A DNA stretch of 64,000 nucleotides from an uncultured Nitrososphaeraceae archaeon (GTDB lineage Archaea; Thermoproteota; Nitrososphaeria; Nitrososphaerales; Nitrososphaeraceae), in assembly GCA_963837175.1 (NCBI GenBank), contig CAWIMJ010000008.1, positions 32,001 through 96,000 of the forward strand, given 5' to 3'. Within the stretch, counting starts at the first letter, position 1, and the number at the start of each line of letters is the position of its first letter. Positions 2,078-58,872 of this stretch are shown here, one piece after another. Position numbers and translations under genes: made by a program. The notes below the pieces were generated by a model. The model saw nothing but the letters and a program-made list of their open reading frames with translations. It did no database searches and was not told the DNA's origin.

Positions 2078-3141
2078 ATGAGTCTTAAACCAAACGTTAT
2101 ATCAAAATTAGGAGTTATCCTATTATCCGCTATATTACTAACCGGAATATCCTTTATCCCTGTATTCCAAGCCGGGGTCTATGCGCAGAAGTTACAATCA
2201 CAACAACAAGCACCTCAGCAACGGAAGAATAATGTTGGGATTAGTCAACTAATAAAATAGATTGCACAACAAGTAGCAAACGGAACTGGTGCTCAACAAA
2301 CTCAGATTCTACAAACACTTAAACAAATAGCTCTTCAAATTTCTAATACAGAAGGAGGAGAAAGGGATAAGGTTGTGCATACTGTAAAAGTTATTCATGA
2401 TCATGTATCGAAGAATCACAAAGGTCGTGAATCAAAATCTATAGAAAGAATTACCATTTGCTACTTTAGCAATTGTCCTGGGGATACTTTTATTTACGCC
2501 CCTACATATAATTTTGATTCGCCTACATATAATTTCTATAATATTAGGACTTTAATAGCTCAAACTAGAGATCCAATAAATATACTAGGCGATGTAGCAA
2601 TTCAAGCAGCAGTAGGCTCACCAGGGACAGTACAGCGGTTAAACGAAATTACAGAGCAGGTGTCTCTTGAAAGTGGCGGTGATCCAGATGAGGTCAAAGG
2701 TGTAGTCCAAAATCTACCTCTTGAAACCTCGAACCAAGGAGGAAATACTCAAAAAGTTATAGATAATATCGCGAATGAGGTCAAACTACCTAACAATCCA
2801 GTTTCTAAATCATTAAACTCTCTTGCTATGGAAGAGAAACAAGGTAACTTTGAGGCTGTCAACATTAGCTGTAGAGAAAGTAGCGGAAGGCGTAGCTGGC
2901 GGTAATGATGTAGCACAAGTAGTAAAAACTGCAGCAGCTGAAGGAACAACAGGGGCAGCAGCATTAGAAGGTGAAGGAACAACAGAGACAGACACAGATG
3001 AAGGCAATGCGAGCTTTAGACTCAGGTGGCGGTGGAGGAGATAGTTCAGGCTCGAGCGACAGCGATAGCGGAGATTCTAGCAATTCATCTGATTCATCGA
3101 ATGGTGGTGGAGATGGAGGCGGCGGTGCAGAAGAACAATAG
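2078..3141 (+). pseudogene. Disrupted secreted Gln-rich protein with Gly/Ser/Asp tail
   Basis: Signal-peptide ORF 2078 stops at TAG 2258-2260 but continues in frame (IAQQVANG...) into ORF 2375; frameshifts near 2868 and 3015 join ORF 2823 and a DSGGGGGDSSGSSDSD...EEQ* tail ending at 3141. Confidence 0.7.
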
Positions 3142-3222
3142 GTCTTAATGTCTAGCTCCATATCAGATAACAACTTCATCTATCTTTTGATTCGTATTCT
3201 TCCGGTTTAATCATTCAGCCTT

Positions 3223-3591
3223 TTAGAAATCCAATAGTAAATCCTGCTGACATACTACTGTCAATCGGATACCAAAGCTTGTCATTGCTAACGAGGCTGT
3301 TGCAGCAGCCGCATGGTCATCAATATTACTACCTCCACTAATACTTGGAATCTGCATAATTAGATTTGAAAGTGTTATTAGTCCTCCTTCTGATACTGTT
3401 TGAAGTTTATTCCAGTTTACATTTAATATCTGATAATATTGGAGATATGCTAATCCAGCTAGAAATAATCCAATTATTACAGCTATTAATTTAATTACTT
3501 TCTTTAAAGCATAACCGATGAGTATTCCAGCAAAGAATCCCCCACCGCCCATAGTAGCTGCAGTTGGTATGAAACTATCAATAATGCTCAT
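3223..3591 (-). CDS. FUN14-family membrane protein, copy 1 (C-terminus frameshifted)
   Basis: GGGFFAGILIGYALKKVIK...GLAYLQY motif; paralog of 7147..7512; restoring one base near 3258 gives GSMSAGFTIGFLKG* like the paralog. Confidence 0.8.
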   Translation of the reverse strand: MSIIDSFIPTAATMGGGGFFAGILIGYALKKVIKLIAVIIGLFLAGLAYLQYYQILNVNWNKLQTVSEGGLITLSNLIMQIPSISGGSNIDDHAAAATASLAMTSFGIRLTVVCQQDLLLDF

Positions 3592-3641
3592 AATTCTAGA
3601 TACTGCTCCTTGGTTCAGTTGTCATTATGTAATGACTATTT

Positions 3642-3806
3642 TCATATCTTTAGTACTGCAGCATTCCTCTTTATAATAACAATGTCAAATATCAACATCC
3701 ATACTATGGATTGAAAACTAGTACTAGCGTATTTCATGCATAATGGGTCTTCTATATTTATTTGCTTATCTAGGGCCTTGACAACAATTAGTCTTTGTAG
3801 TAGCAT
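3642..3806 (-). CDS. Possible small ORF upstream of FUN14 copy 1 (homolog of 7516..7734)
   Basis: Reads MLLQRLIVVKALDKQINIEDPLCMKYASTSFQSIVWML..., co-linear with the ORF upstream of copy 2. Confidence 0.25.
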   Translation of the reverse strand: MLLQRLIVVKALDKQINIEDPLCMKYASTSFQSIVWMLIFDIVIIKRNAAVLKI

Positions 3807-3819
3807 ATTTAATCTATTT

Positions 3820-3853
3820 GTTTACTACAAGAGCTATAGCTTTTGTAGTAGAC
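3820..3853. promoter_or_regulatory. 34-nt near-perfect palindrome, conserved element copy 1
   Basis: GTTTACTACAAGAGCTATAGCTTTTGTAGTAGAC; homologs at 7747-7777 and about 40011-40040. Confidence 0.55.
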
Positions 3854-4124
3854 TTTTCTATCCAATATTATATAGTCAACACAACTTGCAGCAGCATCTT
3901 TGCTTTATCCGACGACTTTTACAGCTTCTCTATCTGACGAAGACTTGACAGCATAAACCGGATAAGGAGTGACGAAGCACACTTTCTTTTACGTAGGGTT
4001 TTTACGTCAAAAAAATAGAATTGACGGAAAGGTAAGTTATACCTTAATCCTCACCGCAGAGTTCTATTGCAAGCCGATATAATCTGATCCCCCGCACAAG
4101 GTATATTCTTCCATTAGGCCATCT

Positions 4125-4976
4125 TTACTTTCCTTTTGTTGCATTTAGGATTAATTCGGCGGTCTGATCTGGTTGTGATACAAGCGAGGCATGGCTAGAG
4201 TTAACTGAGACAGTGGTAGCATTCATTTGTTTTGCGAAGAGACGTTCGGTATCAGGAGGAATCATGTGATCGGCCTCAGAAATTTGATACCATGTTGGTA
4301 ATTGCTTCCATGCTGGAGGGCCAGATTTCTCGCCAAAGATCGATTGATTAAAGGGCTTCTGCACAATAGCCATGATGTCAGCCTCAGTGGGATCAACATC
4401 TTGAGCAAAGGCTCCGGGGAACATGGCTGGGTTTAAGTAGATAAATCCTCCACTGTCGAGAATCAAGAGATCTTTCGGCAACTTTGTTGCGTCGACGAAA
4501 TCCGAGAGTGATTGCCCCTCATCTGGAGCAAATGCGGCAATGTAAACAAGTCCTGTGACATTGGGATTATTATAAGCAGCATTTGTGATCACCAATCCAC
4601 CATAAGAGTGTCCTACAAGAATCGTTGGTCCACCAAGTTGCTCAACTGCACGTTTTACTGTAGCGACATCATCTGCTAGAGAGTGGAGAGGAAGTTGAAC
4701 AGCGATAACACGATGTCCTGCGTTCTTTAGAATAGGAATTTCTTTGCTCCATGTAGATCCATCAGCCCAAGCTCCATGGACTAGAACAATATTAGTAGCG
4801 TTTGTTGTTGTCATAGCCGGTATACCCTGAGGTTGCATTAATGTCTTATTCTCTGGAGTAGCCAGCCCAACATTTGTGGTTGATGCAAGACTAGTGATGA
4901 TTGCAATACTTAGGCACAATAAAATTAAGACCTTTTGTTTTGATCTTATTCTATACATTTCATCGTTGCAATGCAT
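4125..4976 (-). CDS. Secreted alpha/beta hydrolase (Abhydrolase_6-like)
   Basis: IVLVHGAWADG, GHSYGG nucleophile motif, D(HMIPP), SSH catalytic His; N-terminal signal-like hydrophobic segment. Confidence 0.9.
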   Translation of the reverse strand: MHCNDEMYRIRSKQKVLILLCLSIAIITSLASTTNVGLATPENKTLMQPQGIPAMTTTNATNIVLVHGAWADGSTWSKEIPILKNAGHRVIAVQLPLHSLADDVATVKRAVEQLGGPTILVGHSYGGLVITNAAYNNPNVTGLVYIAAFAPDEGQSLSDFVDATKLPKDLLILDSGGFIYLNPAMFPGAFAQDVDPTEADIMAIVQKPFNQSIFGEKSGPPAWKQLPTWYQISEADHMIPPDTERLFAKQMNATTVSVNSSHASLVSQPDQTAELILNATKGK

Positions 4977-5081
4977 TACCGCTTCAATTCACACACTTAT
5001 TATTAAAGAGTTGTTGCTAAGTGGTAAGATAGTCTATGTAGTTATTAGTATTGAACATAAGAGTACAAGTTGACTAACGCG

Positions 5082-6999
5082 TTATCTTATCTTTATCTTT
5101 ATTGCTCTTAAATAAGAGATAGAATCATTCTCAGCACCTATCATCAATGTATAATCTCCTGACTTTAACTCTGTTGAAGGTGTAAAGGTAAATGAAATCT
5201 CTTTTTCTTCTCCTGCATCCATCGAAATTGATTCCTTACTAAAATATCCTGTAGAATTTCCGAGATCTCCTGTAGAAGTAAATGTTCCTGATGAGATCAT
5301 ACGAATGTTATCTATATGTGAAGCAGAAGAAGATAATGATCGTGATTCTGCTATCGCTTTAACTCTGAATTTAATTTTTTCACTCTCATCTCTCTTCACT
5401 GTTAATTCTTTATCTGATTTGTAAATATCTACTGAAAATGGCAAGTTTTTGTCGTTATCTGATTCTAATCTGCCAATCTTATTTTCTGACCATTCTGTAA
5501 ACCAAATCTCATCATCATCACGATCTTGTCCTATAGAGAACTGCAATACATTGGCAATTCCGCATGTCTGGTTGCTGCTACTATTATTATTGATACTATT
5601 ACTATCAATGTTATTGCTGTTGTTGTCATAATTAGAACAGACACCCCATAACCTGTTCTGTGTTGGAACCCAATACTCAATTAGTTTCATATTTGAAGGA
5701 TCAAATTTAGCTATCTTATTTCCTTGTTGTTCATTAAACCATATAGACCCTTCATTTGATTTCTTAATCCATGATGGTTGAGTATAACTGTTTTTGTAAA
5801 TACTGCTAAGATTGCTATTGTTATTAATAGTATTTCTATGACCAAAAACCCTGGAAGAAGTTTTTGATGTTACAAACTTTAGTATATTATTAATATTATT
5901 ATTATCATCATCATCCTTACCTTCTGGATCTAACTTGTAAAATATACTTGTACCTGGATTTGTAATCCATAAATCACCGTCATGATGATGGACATCATCT
6001 ACAACTATTCCCCAAGGAGAGCTTATTCCCTGCTGCCTGGTGCTCTTCAGACAAATTATATACATTAAAAGATTCTGTGTCTAAATCATATTTGAAAATT
6101 TGACCTCTCTGTGCTGCATAAGATAGTACTGAAATCCATATTGCATTTCTTTTATTATCAAATGCAATTGATCCAGTAGTAATATAAACTGGGTCTATTC
6201 CTTTAAATCCTTCCTCAATAGGAATATGAATTTGAGAAATTCCTTCCGATGTTCCATTCTTCATTTCAGCTATATCTGCAATCCATAGTGAAGGAGAATA
6301 TGTACCTACAAAATAAATAATATTCTCATTGTTCGGATCAAATTCAATTGATATTGGATAGGTCGTGCCAAATGACTCTGATTCACCTGGGATGTGGTAT
6401 TTTTCAAATGTTTTTGAAGATTTAATATATCTCCATATTGCATTTTGCTGTTCATCTGTAAACCATACATCTCCTCCTCCTCCTTTTCTTCTGTTATCTA
6501 TCTCTATATCCCATACCTGTGAGAACTCACTCTGACTCTCACGTACTTTCCATTCTGGGATGCGCTCTGCTTGATTAAATTTGTCTTTTTTTAAATCGTA
6601 GCTTCCTAAAAGACCTTTTTTTGTTGATATATACCAAACCTTGTTATCTACATCGTCAATTGCTATCCCTAATGGCATTTCACAAGTTTGTGGAAGGACA
6701 TATTCAATTATGTATTGATTGGAATTGGATTCTGAATTAACACCACAAAATCCCCTCTGAAAAGTTTCAAGTTTGTTGGTTAGCTCCTCTGTTGCTTGTT
6801 TTCGCTTCCCTATATTATCCTCATTAAGATTTGTCTCATTTGTCCCTAATTTCTGCTTGATGGCTTTATCTTCGTGTTCTTTATCCATCAGCTCGGCAGA
6901 TGCAGATGTAGCTGGCGCTGTGAGCACTTGAGTGAAGAGTATTAAACTAACTATCACCACTCCTATCGGATGACAAATAACAAACAGATTTAGCTGCAT
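5082..6999 (-). pseudogene. Secreted Vgb (virginiamycin B lyase)-like beta-propeller protein, split by one frameshift
   Basis: Repeated PxGI..D..VW, IWFTE..NKIG blades across two overlapping ORFs (5995-6999, 5082-6065); the join near 6025 reads EHQAAG/ISSPWGIVVD. Confidence 0.75.
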
Positions 7000-44517: not shown

Positions 44518-45737
44518 TAATACTCATTAACATAAGTTCGTTATGCTATCTATCTAAACAAATATTTGATTATATCTAAATTGAATCTTTAGTTCTGTAA
44601 TAACTACAAATAGTATCTTTCAAATTAGCAAATATTGGATAATAATAATAATAACTAGAAAGTAAATGATACTTATTACCTTGTCTTGTCTCCAACATTC
44701 TTCTTATGCATTAAATTCTGGAGATCCAATAGGAAAATATTCTAGTCTAATAGTATCCTTATTTGCATCAAGATATGCTTTTGTAACTTTGGAACAATGT
44801 GGTGTTTGCCCTATCATCAACAAACATTACAAATTTACCTAATCTATTCTTTACATGTTTTAGATAATCCACAAATATGCTACTGTCAAACTTTTTGTAC
44901 TGTCTAAATAGTTGTTTTTGCCTTCTATTGATAGACAACCAAAAAAAAGATAACTGTCTTGTTGCGTGAACCTGTAACTAACTACTGGTCTTTTGTCTTT
45001 AGAAATCCATTTCTTTCTTTTTCCTTATCAGATAATCATATATACGAATATGGATTCATTTTGTACAAGAACAGTACAATCATCATAATCCAGATTCTTT
45101 AGGATAGGTTTTACTCTTTTTTAAATTTCGTTTCGTTTTATCCTTTGTTGATGCTGTATTTACAAACCTTTTTTGTGGTACTTTTGGTTTGGTTTGGTTT
45201 GGTTTGAAACCCCACTTGTGTAATAAACGGTATATGTGTATTTATGATATCTTTCTTACTCTTGCTCCTCTTTTTTGTATATCAGATCCATTACCTGCCT
45301 GAAATCCCAACCAGTGTTACTATCTTCTAATTCTTTTCTTATTTTTTACCATTATTTCTTTTGATACTGATGGAGCTCTGGTGCTGCCACTTCTTTCCTT
45401 GTCTTTCAATCCTTCTTCTAGTCCATCTCTATCTATCAAATCTATGCAACCATTTGTAAGCCCATGTCCTAGTTTTATTTAGTTCAATTTCTGCTACACT
45501 TGATGCTTCCTTCTTATCATATCTAACATATTTTACAAGTAATATTCTTTCTTTTACAACAGCATCTGTTTCTTTTATGTAAGCAGAATTTAGTTGTTTA
45601 CGTGAAATCAATTACTACTACTATACTAACTAACAAAAGTTCGTTTACAGATTTTTCTTAATATGTAAGATTTACTATGTTTAAAAAATCCTTTAACTTA
45701 GTTTTAAAAGATATACGAAATTATGTTAGGCAGTATA
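44518..45737 (-). mobile_element. IS630-family element, heavily degraded
   Basis: L.SAY.KE.D.VKER.LLV...WAYKW HTH; WGF.PKVP; P.GSPE.N.E.WR.G DDE tail; ends TATACTGCCTAACATAATTTCG vs TAATACTCATTAACATAAGTTCG. Confidence 0.8.
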
Positions 45738-46225
45738 CTAGTGTTCTGAATTCTAATACTTTGCAGTAGAACAGTTGGAAACAGAACACAACATAGGTAA
45801 CAAGGTAATCAATGGCAACAGAATTGCTCAGAAGCGATAGTAGATTATTCTCCTGTAAATATATTGGGTAAAATAGTATAATAAGATATATCTAATTATC
45901 ACCATCAAAAGAATAACAAGGAACAAGTCTATTTGTTACTTTATATAATCTAGAATGTCAACAAAGTGACTCATCATTAGTTATTAGCATTATTGATTAT
46001 TGTATTTCTTTCTCTTACAAGCTCTTCATTTTCAATTGGCTTGGTTATAAACAAAGTTTATCAAATGGACAACATTCCTGTTTTCTAAAATTGTTATAAT
46101 ACATTTCGCTAGCAGTTATAAAAGAAAGCTTTTAGATATCTGTCTTTCTTTTTCAGGCTTTTGATATATTGCCACCTGATATATTTTATGATGAATGCAG
46201 ATTTATAGATTTTTTCTATATATTT

Positions 46226-47139
46226 AGAGCCTATTCCAAAATTATCCTCCTATAGACAATAATACAGCAGGCTAAACAAACCAGTGCAAGATAGTTATCT
46301 CATTTCTTTTCGTATCTTACTAATAACTTTCTGAACCTGTTATTATGCCATGAATTGATTCTTTCTACAACCCACCTCCTTGTTGGATATCTATCTTTAT
46401 CAATTCTTTTTCTTCACCTCTGTAAAGAATATGTGGGATGTATCTTCTTTTGCTAGATTCTCTTTCTATTTCTGGAAAGTCGCATCCTTTGTCACAACAC
46501 AGATTCTGTTTCTTTAACGGTCTATCAACTATCACATTATCCAGCGTATCTGTTACAGCAGCCTTCATTTCATGTGTATTTGCAGCAGTGATAACAACAG
46601 AGATAATGGAATAATACCTTTCTTGTCTGTCAACACATGACGCTTTGTTCCTCTTTTTCCTCTATCTATCAGTTGGATTTGGACCAGTCATATCCCCCTA
46701 AAGGTGCCTTTATAGACACACTGTCAAGTGACTGCCAAATCCAGCTAATACCTCTAAGATCATCATATACTTCCAACAGCATAACCCACAATTTCTGAAA
46801 TACTTTAGACACTCTCCATTCCTTAAGAAATCGTCTATGATGATACGTAGTAGAGCCAGAACCATACTCCTTCTTAGGAAGCATTTTCCACTGACATCCC
46901 GTTCTTAAAACTTAGAGAATATACCATCATCTAGTGACTTTTCTAAAAGAAAAGGAACAACTGGACGTCCTACAGTTTTATCTAGTTTTTCTGATGGAAG
47001 TATTATGTCTTGATCTCATCCCATAAATCATCTGGAATCTTTCTAATGGTGGGAAGATGTTTCTTTTTCCTATATGTCACATGTATAAGCAGATTATTAT
47101 CTTCAAGCTATATCTCTATCTATTTTTGGGATAGGCTCT
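46226..47139 (-). mobile_element. IS5-family element copy 1, degraded
   Basis: TIRs AGAGCCTATTCCAAAA / TTTTGGGATAGGCTCT; GCQWKMLP, DSVSIKAPLGG, DKG.D, WVVER, RFRKLLVRYEK. Confidence 0.9.
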
Positions 47140-47347
47140 CAGTTAGCTTACATGAATTTAGACATTTGTGATTGTATTAACAGATGATATGTTGGGTATC
47201 TGAGGAACTTGGTTTATCAGTATATGACGAGTTGTTTGTAAATCAGTAAAAGATATTAAAAGTTTAAACTCAGATAAATTAGGTATAAGATAGGTAATAC
47301 CAGACTTTCCATATCTCGCTATATGTGTGGAAAATTGCATGGAGAGT

Positions 47348-47432
47348 GGGGTCAAACTCTACCCCATGAAAGCATGGGTGAAACTCATACCCACATTGGG
47401 ATTCAAACTTTTACCCCGAGCGGGGTAAAAGT
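47348..47432. repeat. Array of alternating-orientation GGG(G)T-AAACT / TACCCC motifs
   Basis: GGGGTCAAACTCTACCCC, TGGGTGAAACTCATACCCA, GGGATTCAAACTTTTACCCCG-AG-CGGGGTAAAAGT. Confidence 0.75.
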
Positions 47433-47713
47433 GTTGAAATGACTAATTGTTATGATTTAATATGTTTTCATGGAATAAAGTTGGATATCTATGTCTTGAT
47501 GCAATTTATCAGATTTATACGAGATATCTAAAAGTCCTCGACTGTATAACAGTATGGTTTACCTTGTTGCTATATAGTTTATATGTTTAATGCCTTCTTT
47601 ATTGCTCTAATCAGCTTGACAATGGTAAGCAATATCAATATCTGTGTCCTCAGTATTCTAATTTTTGCATTGTGGTTCAGGCGTTAGCGATATCCTTTAA
47701 TCAAAGCTAACTA

Positions 47714-48673
47714 AGAACCTATCTCAAAAATAAATGCACCAATAAAAGTAATTGCAGATAAGAATAAGCTTGATGCTTAGTACATGTGATTTGTGATTAC
47801 TACAGGAAGAAAGAAAATCTTAGAACAATAAGACATATTTCAGATGAACTATGGAATGAGATAAAGAACATACATATACTCCCTTCTGAAAAACTACCTA
47901 AAACCAAAGGACGTCCAATTGTTCCTTTTCTTTTAGAAAAGTACTAGATGATGGTATATTCTCTAAGTTTTAAGAACGGGATGTCAGTGGAAAATGCTTC
48001 CTAAGAAGGAGTATGGTTCTGGCTCTACTACGTATCATCATAGACGATTTCTTAAGGAATGGAGAGTGTCTAAAGTATTTCAGAAATTGTGGGTTATGCT
48101 GTTGGAAGTATATGATGATCTTAGAGGTATTAGCTGGATTTGGCAGTCACTTGACAGTGTGTCTATAAAGGCACCTTTAGGGGGATATGACTGGTCCAAA
48201 TCCAACTGATAGATAGAGGAAAAAGAGGAACAAAGCGTCATGTGTTGACAGACAAGAAAGGTATTATTCCATTATCTCTGTTGTTATCACTGCTGCAAAT
48301 ACACATGAAATGAAGGCTGCAATAAAGACAATAGATGGTATTTTGGCAAAAAGAAAAAGAAGGATTATCTTCTTCACAGAAACAGAATCTGTGCCTTGAC
48401 AAAGGATATGATTTTCAGGGGGATAGAACATGAGTCTATCAAAAGATACTATATATCACACATACGTCAGAGAGGAGAAGATAATAGCTTGATTATGAAT
48501 AATGATGGATTTCATGTGTGTAGAAGATGGGTTGTTGAAAGAACAAACTCATGGCATAACAGATTCAGGAAACTACTTGTAAGATATGAAAAGATAGCAG
48601 AGAATTACCTTGGATTGGTACAATTAGCTTGTTGCATTATAGTATCTAGGAAGATAATTTTGGGATAGGCTCT
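47714..48673 (+). mobile_element. IS5-family element copy 2, degraded, inverted relative to copy 1
   Basis: TIRs AGAACCTATCTCAAAA / TTTTGGGATAGGCTCT with TA on both sides; RRWVVERTNSWHNRFRKLLVRYEK. Confidence 0.9.
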
Positions 48674-48710
48674 TAGTTTAATTTATTTGAATTCTAAGAT
48701 GTTAGCTGTA

Positions 48711-48926
48711 TTATTCTTCTATTGTTCTCCCTGTTCGCCTTAGTTCAGACTCATTTAGTAAAAATGCAAATATTTGGCCATTACATTCTGTAATGGACTT
48801 TAATGTATAGCCATTTGCTAAAAGTGCCTCAATTTCGTTTAGCATTTTCATAAGACTTGCTCCTTCATGTATAGTAGGGTCGGCACTCTTAACAATCATT
48901 AACGGGCTCTCATGCCAGTTTGTCAT
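48711..48926 (-). CDS. Small hypothetical protein
   Basis: ATG start preceded by GGAG; natural composition. Confidence 0.55.
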   Translation of the reverse strand: MTNWHESPLMIVKSADPTIHEGASLMKMLNEIEALLANGYTLKSITECNGQIFAFLLNESELRRTGRTIEE

Positions 48927-49271
48927 TTTTTATCTACTCCTTTCTCCTTTATGTGGAGTTGGATTCTAGATAATATATTTGTCATTTTTTTACAGAATCC
49001 ATTGCAATTATAAATACTGATGACTATCCAGGTCCTGAATGTCAATGACAAATGAAATTAAAGAGGTTAGCTCGATCTTTTAATGTTATACAAAACTTTA
49101 AAATAATAACTTGCATACTAATACTTTATCAAATCCAAGAAAAAGAATAAGTTCACTAAAATAAAGAAACAAAAACCTTCCAATGAGATCACAGAAGACG
49201 ATATAAATTTTTTCTTAACGACAATAAAGAAAGTACAAAGTGAATATCCAAGGGTTAAAGATCTGCAAAAA

Positions 49272-49463
49272 TTGCTTCGTCCCTCTTTAGATCTTGTTAA
49301 GATAAATGCGATACTAAGGTATTTAGAAAGAACAAAAAGCCTAGAAGTAGATCTTGATGGGAATATCATATGGATTCGTGAAGAAAGCTCCAATCAATCT
49401 ACTCTTGCCGATGTAGCCAATATTTCTAAAGACTTTCAAAAGTATTTTTCTACAAAAGCATAG
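49272..49463 (+). CDS. Hypothetical wHTH-like protein (frame open from 49122, start uncertain)
   Basis: KINAILRYLERTKSLEVDLDGNIIWI. Confidence 0.5.
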   Translation: MLRPSLDLVKINAILRYLERTKSLEVDLDGNIIWIREESSNQSTLADVANISKDFQKYFSTKA

Positions 49464-50217
49464 GAAAATAAGTAGCTAGAATTTCAATGGTTAGATCCAA
49501 TTAGAGTCAGACTACCGAGAAGCAATAGGTTTTGTTAATATACCAAAGTCTCGTATTGCCTTCTATAGAAGTAAGAGAAATAGGATAATTGTTGGTTATA
49601 GAGATGTGCTCACGAACAAATACGCTTCTACCTGAGTAGATAGATACGATAACAAAAAAAATCGGATTTTTGTTTGGCATGAATCTAATTCCTAAATCTC
49701 GGAAAGACTATTCTAATTCGACTCCCGTCCTATAAATTTGTGCTGAAAACCAACAATACGGTGATTCTTGGAACATTATGCAAACTCTTTTTGCATCAGA
49801 ATAAAGTTTTGTTGTGGCCGAAATCTGAAATAGTATTATATTATTTCTATTTACTAGACAAATCTACCTGAACTCGTAATATCTGATATTTTTATGTTCT
49901 CTTTATTCGAGTTTTGTAATTTTGTCAATCTTTGTTCTTTATTGAACATTGGAATATTGCTTAATATGTTTCAATAATCTTGTTTTTATTGGGTGGAATT
50001 TCTCTATATCTTTAATACTTATCCAACATTGCAACCTCTGAATAACTTAACATTTACGCTTTTTCTTTGACCCTTGACTCCAGATAACTTCTCATAGTTT
50101 GGATGGCTTATTTATTTGGGCTAAATACTACTCGTCATATAACCTATACAAACGTGTTTAATAAGTAATCTTTTGTTATTTTTAAAATTTATATATTATA
50201 AACGTGATTTTATAGAA

Positions 50218-50475
50218 CTACTTTTCAGCTGATTCCTTATTTTGCTTTATCCTGTCACGTCTAACCATTTCCTTGTCAATCTCTTCATGCTTTATTTTCT
50301 CCCCTCTGCGTCCCGGTGTTTTCATCGCCTGCTGATTTATGTTCCTTCTTTCATCAGCTAACTCATCATACCCACGATAGCTATTAGTGTTCTGTTGCTT
50401 TTTCTTTTCCAACTCTTGTGCGTACCTTTTCCTAAAGTCGCGCTCTTCCTCGGTGTCCTCAGACATAGTGTTCAC
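50218..50475 (-). CDS. Small highly charged hypothetical protein
   Basis: Charged helical ORF, likely start MSEDTEEE. Confidence 0.6.
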   Translation of the reverse strand: MNTMSEDTEEERDFRKRYAQELEKKKQQNTNSYRGYDELADERRNINQQAMKTPGRRGEKIKHEEIDKEMVRRDRIKQNKESAEK

Positions 50476-50693
50476 TTGATGTGATAGTATTAGAGTTAAA
50501 AAATTTCATATTAACCTTTGTTTTTTTCTATCCTTCACCAGACTATTTTCTAACAACAATAAAATAGGAGCGAGATACTTGTGCCTGAATTGGATATTAA
50601 CTCAAATTATGTTCTTTACTGACTAACAAAAGTTAGTTATATTGTTTATCTTTTTATGTACTAAATATTTAGATTGGTAATATTTATTATTTT

Positions 50694-50812
50694 TATACTG
50701 CCTAACATAATTTCGTATATCTTTTAAAACTAAGTTAAAGGATTTTTTAAACATAGTAAATCTTACATATTAAGAAAAATCTGTAAACGAACTTTTGTTA
50801 GTTAGTATAGTA
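50694..50812 (+). mobile_element. Solo IS630 5' end (119 bp), exact inverted copy of 45619-45737
   Basis: Base-by-base match to the reverse complement of 45619-45737. Confidence 0.9.
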
Positions 50813-52296: not shown

Positions 52297-52679
52297 ATTA
52301 TACCATTAGGGAAAGTAAAACACTATCTTTTCCTTTCCTATATATCTACTGCGTTCATCTCTCATGTTATTCACAAAATAGAAAGCATGTAAATCTTAAT
52401 AAATGAAATTGATGGTTTTGATATATAAAACCGACCACTTATTTTTGCATGATAATCTTTCAGTAATTTACCTCATATAGACAGAAGCTAAAATCAGCGT
52501 TGCTGGGATTCGACATAGTTGTAATATCATAATTTTGTGGATAAATCATTGCCAGATCTTAATTATTCACTCCTTTCAAAGGTATACTAGCATTAATTGT
52601 GCTGGCCACGTGTTCCACAACGTTTTACAGATTTTGAAACTTTTTTCAAAATATCATTACCATCTGCTCACAAGTATAT

Positions 52680-53280
52680 CTAATCGATTTTGTAATACTT
52701 GTGCTCATAAAGTCCATACCAGTAAAATGAATTGGATCTTGTAGGTTGCCAGTCCATCCAATATAACGATTCATTAAGTCAAAGATCATTGTATACCTAA
52801 ACATCTTTTGGTATTCGATCTGGATATCAAATCTACCTGACGGTGGTAGTAATAATCGTCATAGTTGTGCCTACTGTATCTAATGAAAGCAAATGTTATC
52901 ATTGCTAAAGTTATCTTTGACAAAAATTGAATCTGTAAAACCATAAACAGCTTCTAAACCAAATTTTTCAAGTGCAGTCTTTTTCATGAATCTATGGAAC
53001 TTTCTGGCTATGAATGTTATGAGTTCTGCGACACGATGATCACTAAACGCAATATATGAATTTTCAAATACTCCTTAAAATGAATTCGCAAAAACTTTGG
53101 CAGATACCTGCAAACTGTCTTATTTTGAGAGAAGTTGCTTATCCTCCTCTTCAAATCGTTGAATGTCATTATTATTGTGTTGCCTATCTACAGTAACAAC
53201 ATCATCAACTTTGTGTTTTTCTAATTCGGATTTGATAGATGATGATTTGTCCGTTACAAACATTATGGCATCATCAAAAC
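52680..53280 (-). pseudogene. Family B DNA polymerase remnant (fingers/palm)
   Basis: Minus frame reads LQVSAKVFANSF*GVF..FSDHRVAELITFIARK..VYGFTDSIFV, then IEYQKMF..NRYIGW..GMDF. Confidence 0.8.
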
Positions 53281-53310
53281 AGGTACATTTGTAAATAAAA
53301 ATAACTTCAT

Positions 53311-53419
53311 CAGGCCAAGGAGATTGCGGCAGGAATCATTTTTCTTGAGTCCGGATGCATCCTTCATCACAGGCACGGTGATAGACGTAGATGGTAACCA
53401 GAACGCCTCATCGCGTTAG
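53311..53419 (+). pseudogene. Short-chain dehydrogenase C-terminal remnant
   Basis: AKEIAAGIIFL/SPDASFITGTVIDVDG. Confidence 0.65.
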
Positions 53420-53662
53420 CCGGAGTGTAATCGACGTCTAATGCCGTCATAACATCATCATCATCTTTATTATCACTATATTTACTGCCTGTCAGGAAGT
53501 CTTGTTTCCCATCATCATCATCATATCCATGGTGCTTTGGGAAATCATTACTACTATAGCACTTTAATCAACTGCTTTTTCTCCGCATGTTTGATTAGCA
53601 GCTTTTGCTGCTGCTGCATCTAAACCTGGTATAGTAGTAGTTGGTGGTGGTAGTAGTAGGGG

Positions 53663-54172
53663 TTATGATACTGTAGAAACCACAGAGACTGTGTTTGAAC
53701 CAGCATTGGCCACATATACCAAGCCATTAGTTGGGTTAATAGCAACTCCGGATGGACCTTCACCAACAGGTATAGTAGCAATTACTGTGTTAGTTGCAGG
53801 ATCTATTACAGAGACAGTGATGTAATTAGCATTGGCCACATATACCAAGCCACTAGTTGGGTTAATAGCAACTCCAAATGGACTATTACCAACAGGTATA
53901 GTAGCAACTACTGTGTTAGTTTTAGGATCTATTACAGAGACAGTGTTTGAATCAGAATCAGAATTGGCCACATATACCAAGCCACTAGTTGGGTTAATAG
54001 CAACTCCAAATGGACTTTTACCAACAGGTATAGTAGCAATTACAGAATATCCCTGTGCATTAGCTGTACCTATTTCTAAAGGAAATACTATAGTAGATAT
54101 CAGCAATGTCATAGTTAAAAGTGAAAACAATATAAGAGAAATGGTCGTTTTCATTGGGGTTTCATTACTCAT
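53663..54172 (-). CDS. Secreted YVTN/YncE beta-propeller repeat protein (three blades, probably truncated)
   Basis: Three IATIPVG..P.GVAINP..GLVYVAN..SNTVSVID repeats; DNA repeats at 126 and 132 bp spacing. Confidence 0.85.
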   Translation of the reverse strand: MSNETPMKTTISLILFSLLTMTLLISTIVFPLEIGTANAQGYSVIATIPVGKSPFGVAINPTSGLVYVANSDSDSNTVSVIDPKTNTVVATIPVGNSPFGVAINPTSGLVYVANANYITVSVIDPATNTVIATIPVGEGPSGVAINPTNGLVYVANAGSNTVSVVSTVS

Positions 54173-54504
54173 TATAAATCATCTTGTTATAGGCAGCAAC
54201 AACTGCTAAATTCTAGCATTTATGACAAGGAAATGATATATATATTATTTATAGTTTTATAATGTATTTTCTGCTGTTTGTTCAATTGCTCTGCGATGTT
54301 TTTTTGTACTTGTAAATATAATAGAATAATCGCACAGGGTGGCGTATATACATATACAGTATATGGATACCATTTCTTTGTCTTTACTAGATACTCCAAT
54401 TTCTGACGTTTACCACCACCACCATCAGCATAGTACCAGTCCCAAACAATCGAATAATTCTACTTCTTAGCCGTTTCATTACATTACATAAAGAATCAGC
54501 CTTT

Positions 54505-54705
54505 GTGAGTTTTCTTTTTCTAAAATCAAAGCTTAAGGCATATCTGAATATCGAAATAGATCAAGTAGATGATCCTTTAAAGAAATCAAGAGATGTTAAG
54601 GATATAGGTCATTATTCAAGTGGTAAAACAGAAGTAATTATTAAAGGAAAAAGTGAAATCCCATATGCATTATCTCTTATAAAACAAGCATATGAAAGAA
54701 GTTAA
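54505..54705 (+). pseudogene. DUF5655-like C-terminal fragment
   Basis: DDP...RDV..IGHY.SG..EV...LIKQAYE. Confidence 0.6.
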
Positions 54706-55742: not shown

Positions 55743-56378
55743 TTGTCTGTAATCGAAGAAGAACAACAAGATCCTATGACTGTATTTCTGTACGCTCTAA
55801 AAGCTCCTGAAACAAAAAGACAGTGGCCACGGAGATTAAAGGTGTTCCTTGATTTCTTAAAACTTGACGGCATCACGATAAAAGAAAAGGCTAAACAATT
55901 TATGATAAAAGCACAGCTGAATCCACGATGGGCTCAGGACAACTTGATGAAGTTCATAGCTTTTCAAATAGAAAGGGCAAGACGAAATGAAATATCAGAA
56001 ACTACTATTTCAAATTATTATAAAGCGGCTAAGTTATTTTGTGAAATGAATGATCTATCACTAGGTTGGAAGAGAATAAGACGTGGCATAACACGAGGAA
56101 GAAGAGCAGCTAATGATAGAGCTCCAACAATGGAAGAAATACAGAAGCTAGTGGAATATCCAGACAGGCGGATTAAAGCAATTATCTACACTATGGCTTC
56201 ATCAGGAATTAGAATTCGTGTTTGGGATTACCTACAGTGGAAACATGTAACTCCTATTACCAATAGTGTTGGAGAAGAAATCATTGCTGCTAAATTATTG
56301 ATTTATCCAGGAGATCACGAAGAATATTATACTTTTATCACTCCAGAGGCTTACATCAAAAGGCAATCCAACCTATAA
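55743..56378 (+). pseudogene. Tyrosine recombinase/integrase, truncated before the HxxR and Tyr catalytic residues
   Basis: LKAPETKRQW..RL..F, ISETTISNYYK, DRAPT.EEI.KL, SSGIRI (catalytic Arg), YYTFITPEA, then an abrupt end. Confidence 0.85.
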
Positions 56379-56790: not shown

Positions 56791-57109
56791 TATCTTTTAT
56801 TAAAATACAATAATATGGAAAAGACCTCATAAGATTACATCATCGGTGGTAATTCAATTTGTACGTAAAAACCAGGAAGATAAAAAGGATATTATATATT
56901 ATATCGAGATATAATTTAAAAGAAATTCATTGCAATATTTAGTATACCTATAACAGCATTATAACAAATACTTTGAATTCAAATACCGTGCAGTAGTAAC
57001 AGTTGAAAACAGATGATAACAGAGGTAACAAAGTGATATCAATGATAACAAAATTGGTATCAAATGATAACAATAACAATAGCTTTAAGCTTCCATCATA
57101 TTATATTCC

Positions 57110-58233
57110 TTGAAAAGAAAAGATATGACGATATTAACAAGACAGGAAAAAGAAAGACTTGTACTAGATCTTTACAACCAAGATAAGACTTATCGTGAAA
57201 TATCTAAGGAGGCAAGACTATCTCCACGTGATATAGGAGTTATTTTGAATAGGGTAATTGAAGAGAAGACAGAAGGATTAAAAGAAGAACGACAACAACA
57301 AGATAATAACGATGCTGAGAATAACTAAGAAGATTAACAACACCTATCACTTTCCACTCAAGCATACAAACTCTTTTCTGAAGGTAAGACCCCATTAGAA
57401 GTAGCTATTGCATTAAACCTAAGTGAGTCAGAAGCAACTAAATTCTGTAGAGAGTATTGGAAGCTAACCAGCTACACAGTCTGAATATAGTTTATGAAGA
57501 GACTAAAGGTGATATCGACCCATTTCTAATGTTATACAAATTAGCTAAGAGAAAAGGTATGGGTATCCAGCAAGTTGTTAATGTTCTTGCAATTGCTAAC
57601 AATGATTTACCAGCAATTGAAGAGCAACTTAAAAGGCTAAGAAATGATATAAGCGCACTGGAATTTCAAAAAGGTATAGATGAGAGAAATTTACACCACT
57701 TGAATAATCAAATAGCATCAACAACTAAGCTCTTGAATTCTTTTCGTATGTCTTGTAAAAGAGAAATAAGAGAAATGGAACATCTACAGAATGAAAAGGC
57801 AAGACTCGAGGCTACTGTAACTCAATTTAAGAATAATAATGAAGAATACCTTGATAAAATAAAACTGGCAGCTTATGAAGAAGTGGGAAGTGTATTAAAT
57901 GACAGTAAATTACTATTGAAAGTTGCTACTCTCTCAATAATTGAATCATTAAGAAGGAACTCTGAATTATATAATTTTGTGTTGTATGATACTTCAGTTC
58001 AAACTGCTTCTGCTGCTTATGGATCTAACTATCTTTCATTAATGTCAGGACGAGAGCAGTATCAACAAGCATTTAATGATACCTATACTGCTTTGATATT
58101 AGAAGAGGCTGAAAAGCTTTACAATGACTTGACAACAAAATTGACAAATGACGTTATGGCAGCAGCTGCAGCGATGAGGGCATCATCGTTACGATCACTA
58201 CCAGCTAATAACACAACCGGAAACTACCTATAA
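57110..58233 (+). pseudogene. HTH plus coiled-coil protein of integrative elements, disrupted
   Basis: EKERLVLDLY..KTYREI.KEAR.SPRDI HTH, stops from 57326, second HTH (AYKLFSEGKTPLEVAIAL), frameshift into coiled-coil ORF 57457. Confidence 0.75.
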
Positions 58234-58872
58234 GATTGATAAGAATGATGAAATAGAAGAACCGAGATATAATAATAATTGATCAAAAATTTATAACGAT
58301 GACCAGCAACTACCAAATGAATAATGATAAATAGATATTATCAACAATGCTATCAATAGAAGATTATAATTCATTTCTTATACTAACCAAATAGAATATT
58401 AAGCTGGTTTAATTAAAGAAGAGAGTACATCAGAATTAAGATATTGGGTGGGAATTGTTCCGTATTCTTACCATAATATTCAGAACACGATTTCTGTTCC
58501 CATTACCCAAAGGTCTTTTGAGGTACTTCTAGACATAGTAATTATATTATATAATAATTTCCTTTAACAATATACTATATGTTAGGAATATATCGATTTA
58601 TCACCTTAGAAGGCAACACGCCGCATATAATTAGAACGTGGGAGAAATAATGAGAAATTGTGCCAATGAAGATAATAATAACAATAATGAGATGTGATGT
58701 CCTTAATCATAGATCATAATGATGATGGAAATGAGTTAAAAGAACACTTAACGTCAAATATAATATTGTAAATAAGAAAGTTTAATGGTGTAAAAGCAAA
58801 GTATTAGAATAATTAGTTTCTACCCTAGAGAAGTGTGATATAGTATTACTTAAACTAGTCAAGTGACAGCTA

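Follow-up and report, generated by a model that had tools for sequence, protein, structure and literature searches.

A decayed family B DNA polymerase gene with phenylalanine in motif C, probably left by an integrated element of Nitrososphaeraceae

The window analyzed here is a whole stretch of 64,000 nucleotides of a Nitrososphaeraceae genome, and the question that it raises is what left a set of polymerase-like motifs on its minus strand. The initial annotation had read them as hidden remains of a family B DNA polymerase (PolB), divergent in sequence and carried by an element. We consider it about 85% probable that these motifs belong to a dead gene fragment, left from the gene for the replicative polymerase of an integrated, self-replicating element of a kind typical of Nitrososphaeraceae. 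The relic itself is junk DNA with no function. It is a pointer to a coherent family of ~700-aa PolBs, called xGFTDS here after motif C, in which an invariant Phe replaces an active-site Asp present in nearly all PolBs, and which is carried by tRNA-integrating Nitrososphaeraceae elements together with MCM or PrimPol-MCM.

The relic and its surroundings in the window

All four strings picked out in the initial annotation (motif B, VAELITFIAR, VYGFTDSIFV and NRYIG) lie in one shared minus-strand frame. Read through with X at stops, the relic matched Pfam DNA_pol_B (PF00136) at E 1.5e-6 (27.7 bits; cut-off 23), and in a phmmer search of the PDB its motifs B and C aligned to Pol alpha (E 1.7e-6) as well as to archaeal PolB chains. 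When longer relatives were sought among 5.8 billion proteins, a single match was obtained, P0124, an intact 788-aa metagenomic protein, which in turn matched the window by tblastn at E 8e-62 with 67% identity. The PF00136 and P0124 matches bear out a hidden minus-strand PolB relic, and the significant polymerase-domain match, with motif B followed by motif C in that order, places it in the PolB family.

The span given for the relic at first, 53280-52680, was wrong. The PolB-derived part is 52599..53155 on the minus strand, which corresponds to P0124 residues 475-659, comprising the fingers with motif B and the palm with motif C and the KxY region. Motif B (KxxxNSxYG) lies at 53072..53098 (minus) and reads K..NS.-stop-G, with TAA for Tyr. 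Motif C, YGFTDS, lies at 52928..52945 (minus), its Phe codon being TTT at 52939-52937, and NRYIG at 52757..52771 (minus) belongs to the KxY (KKRY) palm region, where most relatives read KKNR[YF] and P0124 reads LMNRY. The counterparts of the three motifs in P0124 are KVFANSFYG, VYGFTDSIFVK and LMNRYIGW. The relic is not a complete open PolB gene with exonuclease, motif A and thumb, since it covers residues 475-659 of 788 only: the N-terminal domain, the exonuclease domain and motif A (before residue 475) and the thumb (after 659) are absent, and the P0124 residues upstream of 475 had no tblastn match in the window.

Aligned frame by frame to P0124, the relic resolved into six minus-strand pieces: 53155-53123 (frame 0; P0124 475-485, added from tblastn), 53119-53078 (frame 0; 487-500), 53074-52892 (frame 0; 502-562), 52890-52828 (frame 1; 564-584), 52834-52658 (frame 0; 581-639) and 52658-52599 (frame 2; 640-659). 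The lesions amount to two TAA nonsense codons and three frameshifts. Both TAA codons, at 53122-53120 and 53077-53075, stand at Tyr positions of P0124, and the earlier suggestion that the motif B Tyr had turned into TAA holds, as P0124 has Tyr there. Two of the frameshifts, between which the middle piece continues in another frame, account for three apparent stops at 52882-52859; the third frameshift is at ~52658. Of the codons of the gene, the first ~474 and the last ~129 are gone as well. With its ends missing, two nonsense codons and three frameshifts, the relic is unable to make a polymerase.

A conserved non-PolB unit of ~190 nt (53156..53314, to about 53340, minus strand) abuts the 5' break of the relic. 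Copies of 53156-53314 occur in genomes of other genera at 50-75% amino-acid identity, without PolB sequence after them. Since the similarity shows in more than one reading frame, the unit may be a DNA- or RNA-level element and not coding. No Rfam family was found in 44-60 kb at E <= 0.1, this unit included. It recurs in at least three other genera (many times in G015, and in G007 and G065) and in the same-genus genome G052.

The integrase that the initial annotation had noted nearby is a truncated tyrosine-integrase gene of 211 aa at 55743..56378 on the plus strand. It covers residues 11-207 of the 405-aa integrase of locus L041 (tblastn, 50% identity, E 2.5e-60), which sits beside an intact PrimPol-MCM/PolB module. 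The window ORF alone gave no Pfam match; its full-length partner P0281 matched PF00589 (E 2.7e-5) and a PHROG integrase family (E 1.2e-14). Of the catalytic regions, that of the first Arg is kept in the ORF, and those with HxxR and Tyr are missing. The fragment faces away from the relic at a distance of 2.6 kb, with an unrelated repeat module between the two. The association noted at first is therefore correct in that the gene is homologous to integrases beside intact PolB copies, but only its N-terminal half is present and it is divergent in orientation to the relic.

The module between them (53437..54705) is multi-copy and contains an NHL/beta-propeller ORF (53663-54172, minus; Pfam NHL/YNCE). 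It matched contigs C19, C9, C16 and C34 by blastn at 85-91%, and it takes up the position in which one would look for the 5' two-thirds of the PolB gene and for any MCM gene. On the other side of the relic, the repeat context extends over 44520..50812. It comprises an IS-like repeat (44520-45623), two identical inverted copies of a ~117-bp MITE-like repeat (45620-45737 and 50694-50812; >40 genome copies at 90-97%) and, within the 5-kb stretch that these copies bracket, two inverted IS5-like transposase relics (46203-47143 and 47704-48680). MCM similarity was found nowhere in the window by tblastn, no tRNA gene was found in the window, and no element borders were definable around the relic. To look for an empty site or conserved synteny, the two flanking genes were also searched in four same-genus genomes, in which the kinase belongs to a large paralogous family and the aminopeptidase has relatives of only 39-40%. 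A further module at 56889-58440 includes a 258-aa ORF (57457-58233, plus strand) and has at least 10 copies on other contigs at 77-88% identity. This ORF has no Pfam or PHROG family, and the module may be an unrecognised mobile unit.

The xGFTDS family and the type of polymerase

The Phe that stands for the first Asp of motif C, pointed out in the initial annotation, is the native state of a family and not a product of decay. P0124 itself reads YGFTDS, so the YGFTDS of the relic is ancestral and not damage. Relatives were aligned with P0124 using P0002, an intact 692-aa copy, as the query, and among P0124 and the 120 best relatives of P0002 (n=121), motif C was xGFTDS in 119 and gapped in the other two. 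Intact homologs thus keep the Phe motif, and a paralogous relic on contig C36 of the same genome also reads YGFTDS. The fetched loci of the first family scan carried x[GR]FTD[SG] in 15 cases and YGDTDS in eight. Among the best 150 matches in 1.84 billion representatives, 66 had a length of 550 aa or more. Among them, P0064 reads FGFTDS, and of the other 65, the next-nearest sequences, 63 read xxDTDS.

In a 19-row alignment (A2), the invariant positions were D48/E50, D158, Y270/D274, D370, K494/N498 and G546-F547-T548-D549-S550. We take these to be ExoI (D48/E50), ExoII (D158), ExoIII (Y270/D274), motif A (D370), motif B (K494/N498) and motif C (F547/D549). With this conservation, the xGFTDS PolB would be an active polymerase that uses two remaining carboxylates, the Asp of motif A and the second Asp of motif C.

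Matches to the family were found in 75 of 201 same-family genomes, a count that takes in weak matches to housekeeping-type PolBs of ~905-920 aa and the genomes G035 and G160. Strong matches were open frames of ~680-730 aa, that is, proteins of roughly 700 aa. The family is multi-copy and patchy, with 14 matches in G015, 10 in G051, six in G137 and none in many relatives. When patterns from A2 were scanned against one genome per species (185,579 species), 27 loci were obtained, all titled Nitrososphaeraceae, Nitrososphaerales, Ca. Nitrosocosmicus or Ca. Nitrosopolaris; a search of genome contigs with P0124 alone as the query found nothing. Two proteins of ~1030-1040 aa, P0054 and P0061, have a Dam-type adenine methylase domain (PF02086) fused to an xGFTDS-family PolB.

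A maximum-likelihood tree of 53 rows was built (LG+G4, quick search, SH-aLRT support only, midpoint root), without named references and leaving out all representatives >1000 aa and about a dozen others. The relic and P0124 were sisters with an SH-aLRT of 100, and both fell within a 12-row xGFTDS clade (support 99), to which the relic belongs by its Phe at the first-Asp position and by its closest relatives. This clade sits in a 35-row clade (support 100) of 566-805-aa PolBs, whose few source-named members come from Ca. Nitrosocosmicus and Thermoproteota MAGs. The 909-aa PolB of the host (YGDTDS) and its 781-aa PolB lie in another clade of 18 rows (support 100). The xGFTDS family is therefore not nested in the host PolBs in this tree. 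The attribution of the relic to a divergent, element-borne PolB is upheld by this clade separation and by the neighbourhoods of the intact copies.

The solved sequence nearest to P0002 was that of PolB1 from S. solfataricus (E 1.8e-27). P0124 was modelled with AF2 (pLDDT 75.5, pTM 0.70), and the model superposed over ~775 columns, at a TM of ~0.6, on KOD, 9N, Tgo, PolB1, Pol delta and Pol alpha. P0002 and P0003 matched only PF00136 in Pfam (E <= 0.01), not the protein-primed PF03175. Because the closest solved sequence and the closest full-length folds are nucleic-acid-primed archaeal PolBs, the xGFTDS PolB is, judging from the model and the matches, predicted to be of the nucleic-acid-primed type.

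The second host PolB (779-781 aa) was found at C8:113931-115052 (L002:1429-3765, minus strand), 18 kb past the window end. It keeps motif A (DFVSLYPS), and its ExoI, motif B, motif C and KxY were not matched by motif patterns; it may be an inactivated or B2-like paralogue.

Gene neighbourhood of intact copies

The neighbourhoods of intact copies were analyzed with Pfam on 46 ORFs from three 20-kb loci. An MCM gene ended right at the PolB start in all three, and a weak Phage_integrase match was present in one. When 27 loci were searched by tblastn with the MCM and integrase proteins from these three, together with a motif check, an MCM gene immediately preceded the PolB, in the same orientation, in 13 of 19 xGFTDS loci, intact or partial; one of the 13 is a 1389-aa MCM-PolB fusion. 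Four of the six loci without MCM have <700 bp of upstream sequence; of the other two, which belong to a subclade without an adjacent MCM, L050 has 1.2 kb and L051 has 9 kb.

L051 (G016:C29), of the P0002 subclade, carries an integrase, two small ORFs, a 693-aa protein and the PolB. The 693-aa protein (3091-5172, minus) matched no Pfam or PHROG family and is unlike the PrimPol-domain profile; as it takes the MCM position, it could be an unrecognised primase or helicase.

Seven MCM proteins of 1025-1204 aa share a conserved N-terminal domain of ~420 aa, in which D115/D117 (DxD) and H183 (GYH) are invariant. We assume that these residues are the DxD/sxH catalytic motifs of AEP. Foldseek with a mediocre model of the domain (pLDDT 62) gave four significant matches, all to the pRN1 prim-pol (E 8e-5 to 5e-4, TM 0.19-0.37). 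By sequence, Pfam gave only PriCT_1 at E 0.062, a PDB profile search gave nothing, and PHROGs gave nothing significant. Based on the fold matches of the model, the domain is likely a PrimPol.

MCM and PolB are also found as one protein. At L066:2680-6846 (minus; G101:C258), a single 1389-aa frame fuses MCM to a PolB with FGFTDS. G002, G013 and G074 also have PolB-matching frames of 1382-1401 aa, and P0155, a 1402-aa representative, reads YGDTDS.

A co-directional order of integrase, MCM and PolB was observed in L041, L045, L058 and L068. A second recombinase type that bears a Zn ribbon fills the integrase position in L040, L042 and L054, and was also found ~4.4 kb from a YGDTDS-type PolB in L044. 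A tRNA gene adjoined the recombinase gene in five of 13 scanned loci: two of these were Arg-tcg, one was Lys-ctt, one Met-cat and one an odd tRNA. A search for att repeats around three intact loci gave none. An integrase next to a YGDTDS PolB was seen in L063 (G015:C3).

The divergent integrase fragment of the window is unlike this co-directional order, so the two relics may not share one insertion. The region from 44 to 60 kb is, moreover, a mosaic of repeats, and the relic and the integrase fragment may therefore stem from separate insertions. Both are probably debris of elements of this kind, possibly from different insertions.

Origin of the relic and related systems

Each of the other origins that we considered has some evidence in its favor. 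The integrase, MCM and PolB could be the replication module of integrated archaeal viruses and not of capsid-less elements. Kazlauskas 2020 describes PolB and MCM as common among the genomes of archaeal viruses, P0124 matched PHROG DNA-polymerase families at E 5e-29, and many ORFs flanking the intact loci had no Pfam match. However, no capsid, portal or terminase gene was found in the 46 ORFs of the three loci or in nine ORFs of L051, ~10 kb being covered on each side, and we regard a provirus origin as unlikely. A scan of IMG/VR viral contigs with alignment A2 gave 80 pattern matches, of which none was confirmed; this is weak evidence because only two peptide patterns were used. That the relic is a decayed duplicate of a host housekeeping PolB is very improbable. 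The genome does have two such candidates, the 909-aa YGDTDS PolB on contig C50 and the 781-aa PolB on the same contig as the relic (C8), but the relic matched the former only at E 0.0031 with 26% identity and did not match the latter, whereas it is 67% identical to P0124, and the host PolBs fall in a different clade with a support of 100. The duplicate origin was rejected on the 26% identity and the separate clade.

The initial annotation had likened the relic to casposons, and family 1 casposons with a protein-primed PolB do occur in Thaumarchaeota, as stated in Krupovic 2019 (PMC6563490). It is nevertheless very improbable that the relic derives from a casposon, or from any other element whose PolB is protein-primed. 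Cas1 was absent from all 46 ORFs beside the three intact copies and from all 113 frames of the window, the genes that accompany the PolB encode a tyrosine integrase and MCM, and the PolB matches PF00136 instead of PF03175, with nucleic-acid-primed archaeal PolBs as the closest folds. For lack of Cas1 and with a PolB of the nucleic-acid-primed type, the casposon likeness and a protein-primed origin were both rejected. The least probable of these alternatives, to which we give almost no credence, is a live gene expressed through recoding by stop read-through or programmed frameshifting. It would agree with the position of both in-frame TAA codons at Tyr sites, but three frameshifts are present besides the TAAs, ~600 end codons are gone across the two ends, the neighbours of the relic are long ordinary table-11 ORFs, and the paralogous C36 fragment is broken elsewhere. 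The lesion map and the truncations led us to reject recoding.

The preferred reading remains that the relic is dead and derives from the gene for the replicative polymerase of an integrated element. In the intact elements, the tyrosine integrase would insert the element next to a tRNA gene, the MCM, mostly fused to the N-terminal PrimPol-like domain, would open and prime the element DNA, and the PolB of roughly 700 aa, nucleic-acid-primed and with a proofreading exonuclease, would copy it. Both the polymerase activity and this replication mechanism are proposed from the gene content and the conserved motifs.

The closest described element is ThaMY3-E2, a 98.3-kb cryptic integrated thaumarchaeal element with an integrase, PolB and MCM, to which Krupovic 2019 (Environ Microbiol, PMC6563490) devotes one sentence. 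By that description, it resembles the intact loci here as an integrase-bearing integrated element of thaumarchaea with PolB and MCM, and differs in size, at 98.3 kb vs ~9 kb for the module from tRNA and integrase to PolB in L041. Its mention means that the element class is not wholly uncharacterised, as the initial annotation had supposed, although the class is little described in the portions of the literature covered here. The PolB family is a little-described variant of PolB-bearing integrated elements. The same paper mentions a conjugative element with a PolB that resembles that of family 2 casposons, and a PolB/RadA-like operon. Casposons of families 1 and 2 are, like the present elements, self-synthesising, integrated, equipped with their own PolB and found in Thaumarchaeota. 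Their integrase is Cas1 and not a tyrosine recombinase, however, and the family 1 PolB is protein-primed.

Pipolins also resemble the present elements in being integrated and self-replicating, with a PolB without the first motif C Asp. Their piPolB polymerises efficiently despite this, according to the summary in Kazlauskas 2020, which, like Krupovic 2019, cites Redrejo-Rodriguez 2017. As outlined in Kazlauskas 2020, however, pipolins occur in bacteria and mitochondria, and piPolB stands apart from nucleic-acid-primed PolBs, whereas the xGFTDS PolB falls with the nucleic-acid-primed archaeal PolBs. The xGFTDS PolB is accompanied by a putative primase-helicase, a partner that speaks for primed synthesis, unlike piPolB. 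A single conserved motif C Asp is shared with two further groups as they are described in Kazlauskas 2020: PolB_SITDG of cyanobacteria and algae, which has a hydrophobic residue at the first Asp, and PolB2 (B2/G2), which has one conserved motif C Asp and is without conserved ExoI and ExoIII. In contrast to PolB2, xGFTDS keeps ExoI and ExoIII. In the literature searched, no polymerase paper was found with the motif strings, and no Nitrososphaeraceae PolB group with Phe was found; the supplements of Krupovic 2019 and Kazlauskas 2020 may list these genes.

With archaeal PolB1 and PolB3 (S. solfataricus PolB1, PDB 1S5J; KOD/9N/Tgo), xGFTDS has in common the N-terminal, exonuclease, palm, fingers and thumb domains, ExoI-III, motifs A and B, and KxY. 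It differs in the Phe for the first motif C Asp, in its length of ~700 aa vs 909 aa for the host enzyme, in genes that are patchy, multi-copy and element-borne, and in its separate clade. The long MCMs resemble the pRN1 replicase ORF904 in joining what is likely an N-terminal prim-pol to a replicative helicase, the fold match being weak (TM 0.19-0.37), but here the helicase is an MCM and a separate PolB is present.

Compact modules of integrase, primase-helicase and polymerase are candidate minimal archaeal replisomes and sources of unusual polymerases, and they bear on the movement of replication genes between elements and archaeal hosts. A more far-reaching reading, which we put forward tentatively and consider rather doubtful, is that the xGFTDS PolBs are an as yet unnamed clade of replicases, carried by elements, that occurs only in soil ammonia-oxidising archaea, that Phe gives them a distinct catalytic chemistry, that they form a minimal two-protein replisome with PrimPol-MCM, sometimes fused to it, and that the broken copies record repeated invasion and decay. 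If this were so, the distinct chemistry could show, for instance, in a changed use of metals, in altered fidelity or in the bypass of lesions.

For annotation of this genome, four PolB fragments besides the relic were located (C36, C16, C54 and C34), which gives at least five in total, and fragments of the integrase family occur in 13 places. Neither an intact xGFTDS PolB nor an element-type MCM was found in the assembly, which is 91.5% complete. The C36 fragment has 81.5% DNA identity to the relic and is broken at different places. At C16:38173-39280, an integrase fragment (~11-231) is followed immediately by a co-directional fragment from the N-terminal part of a PolB (~49-217).
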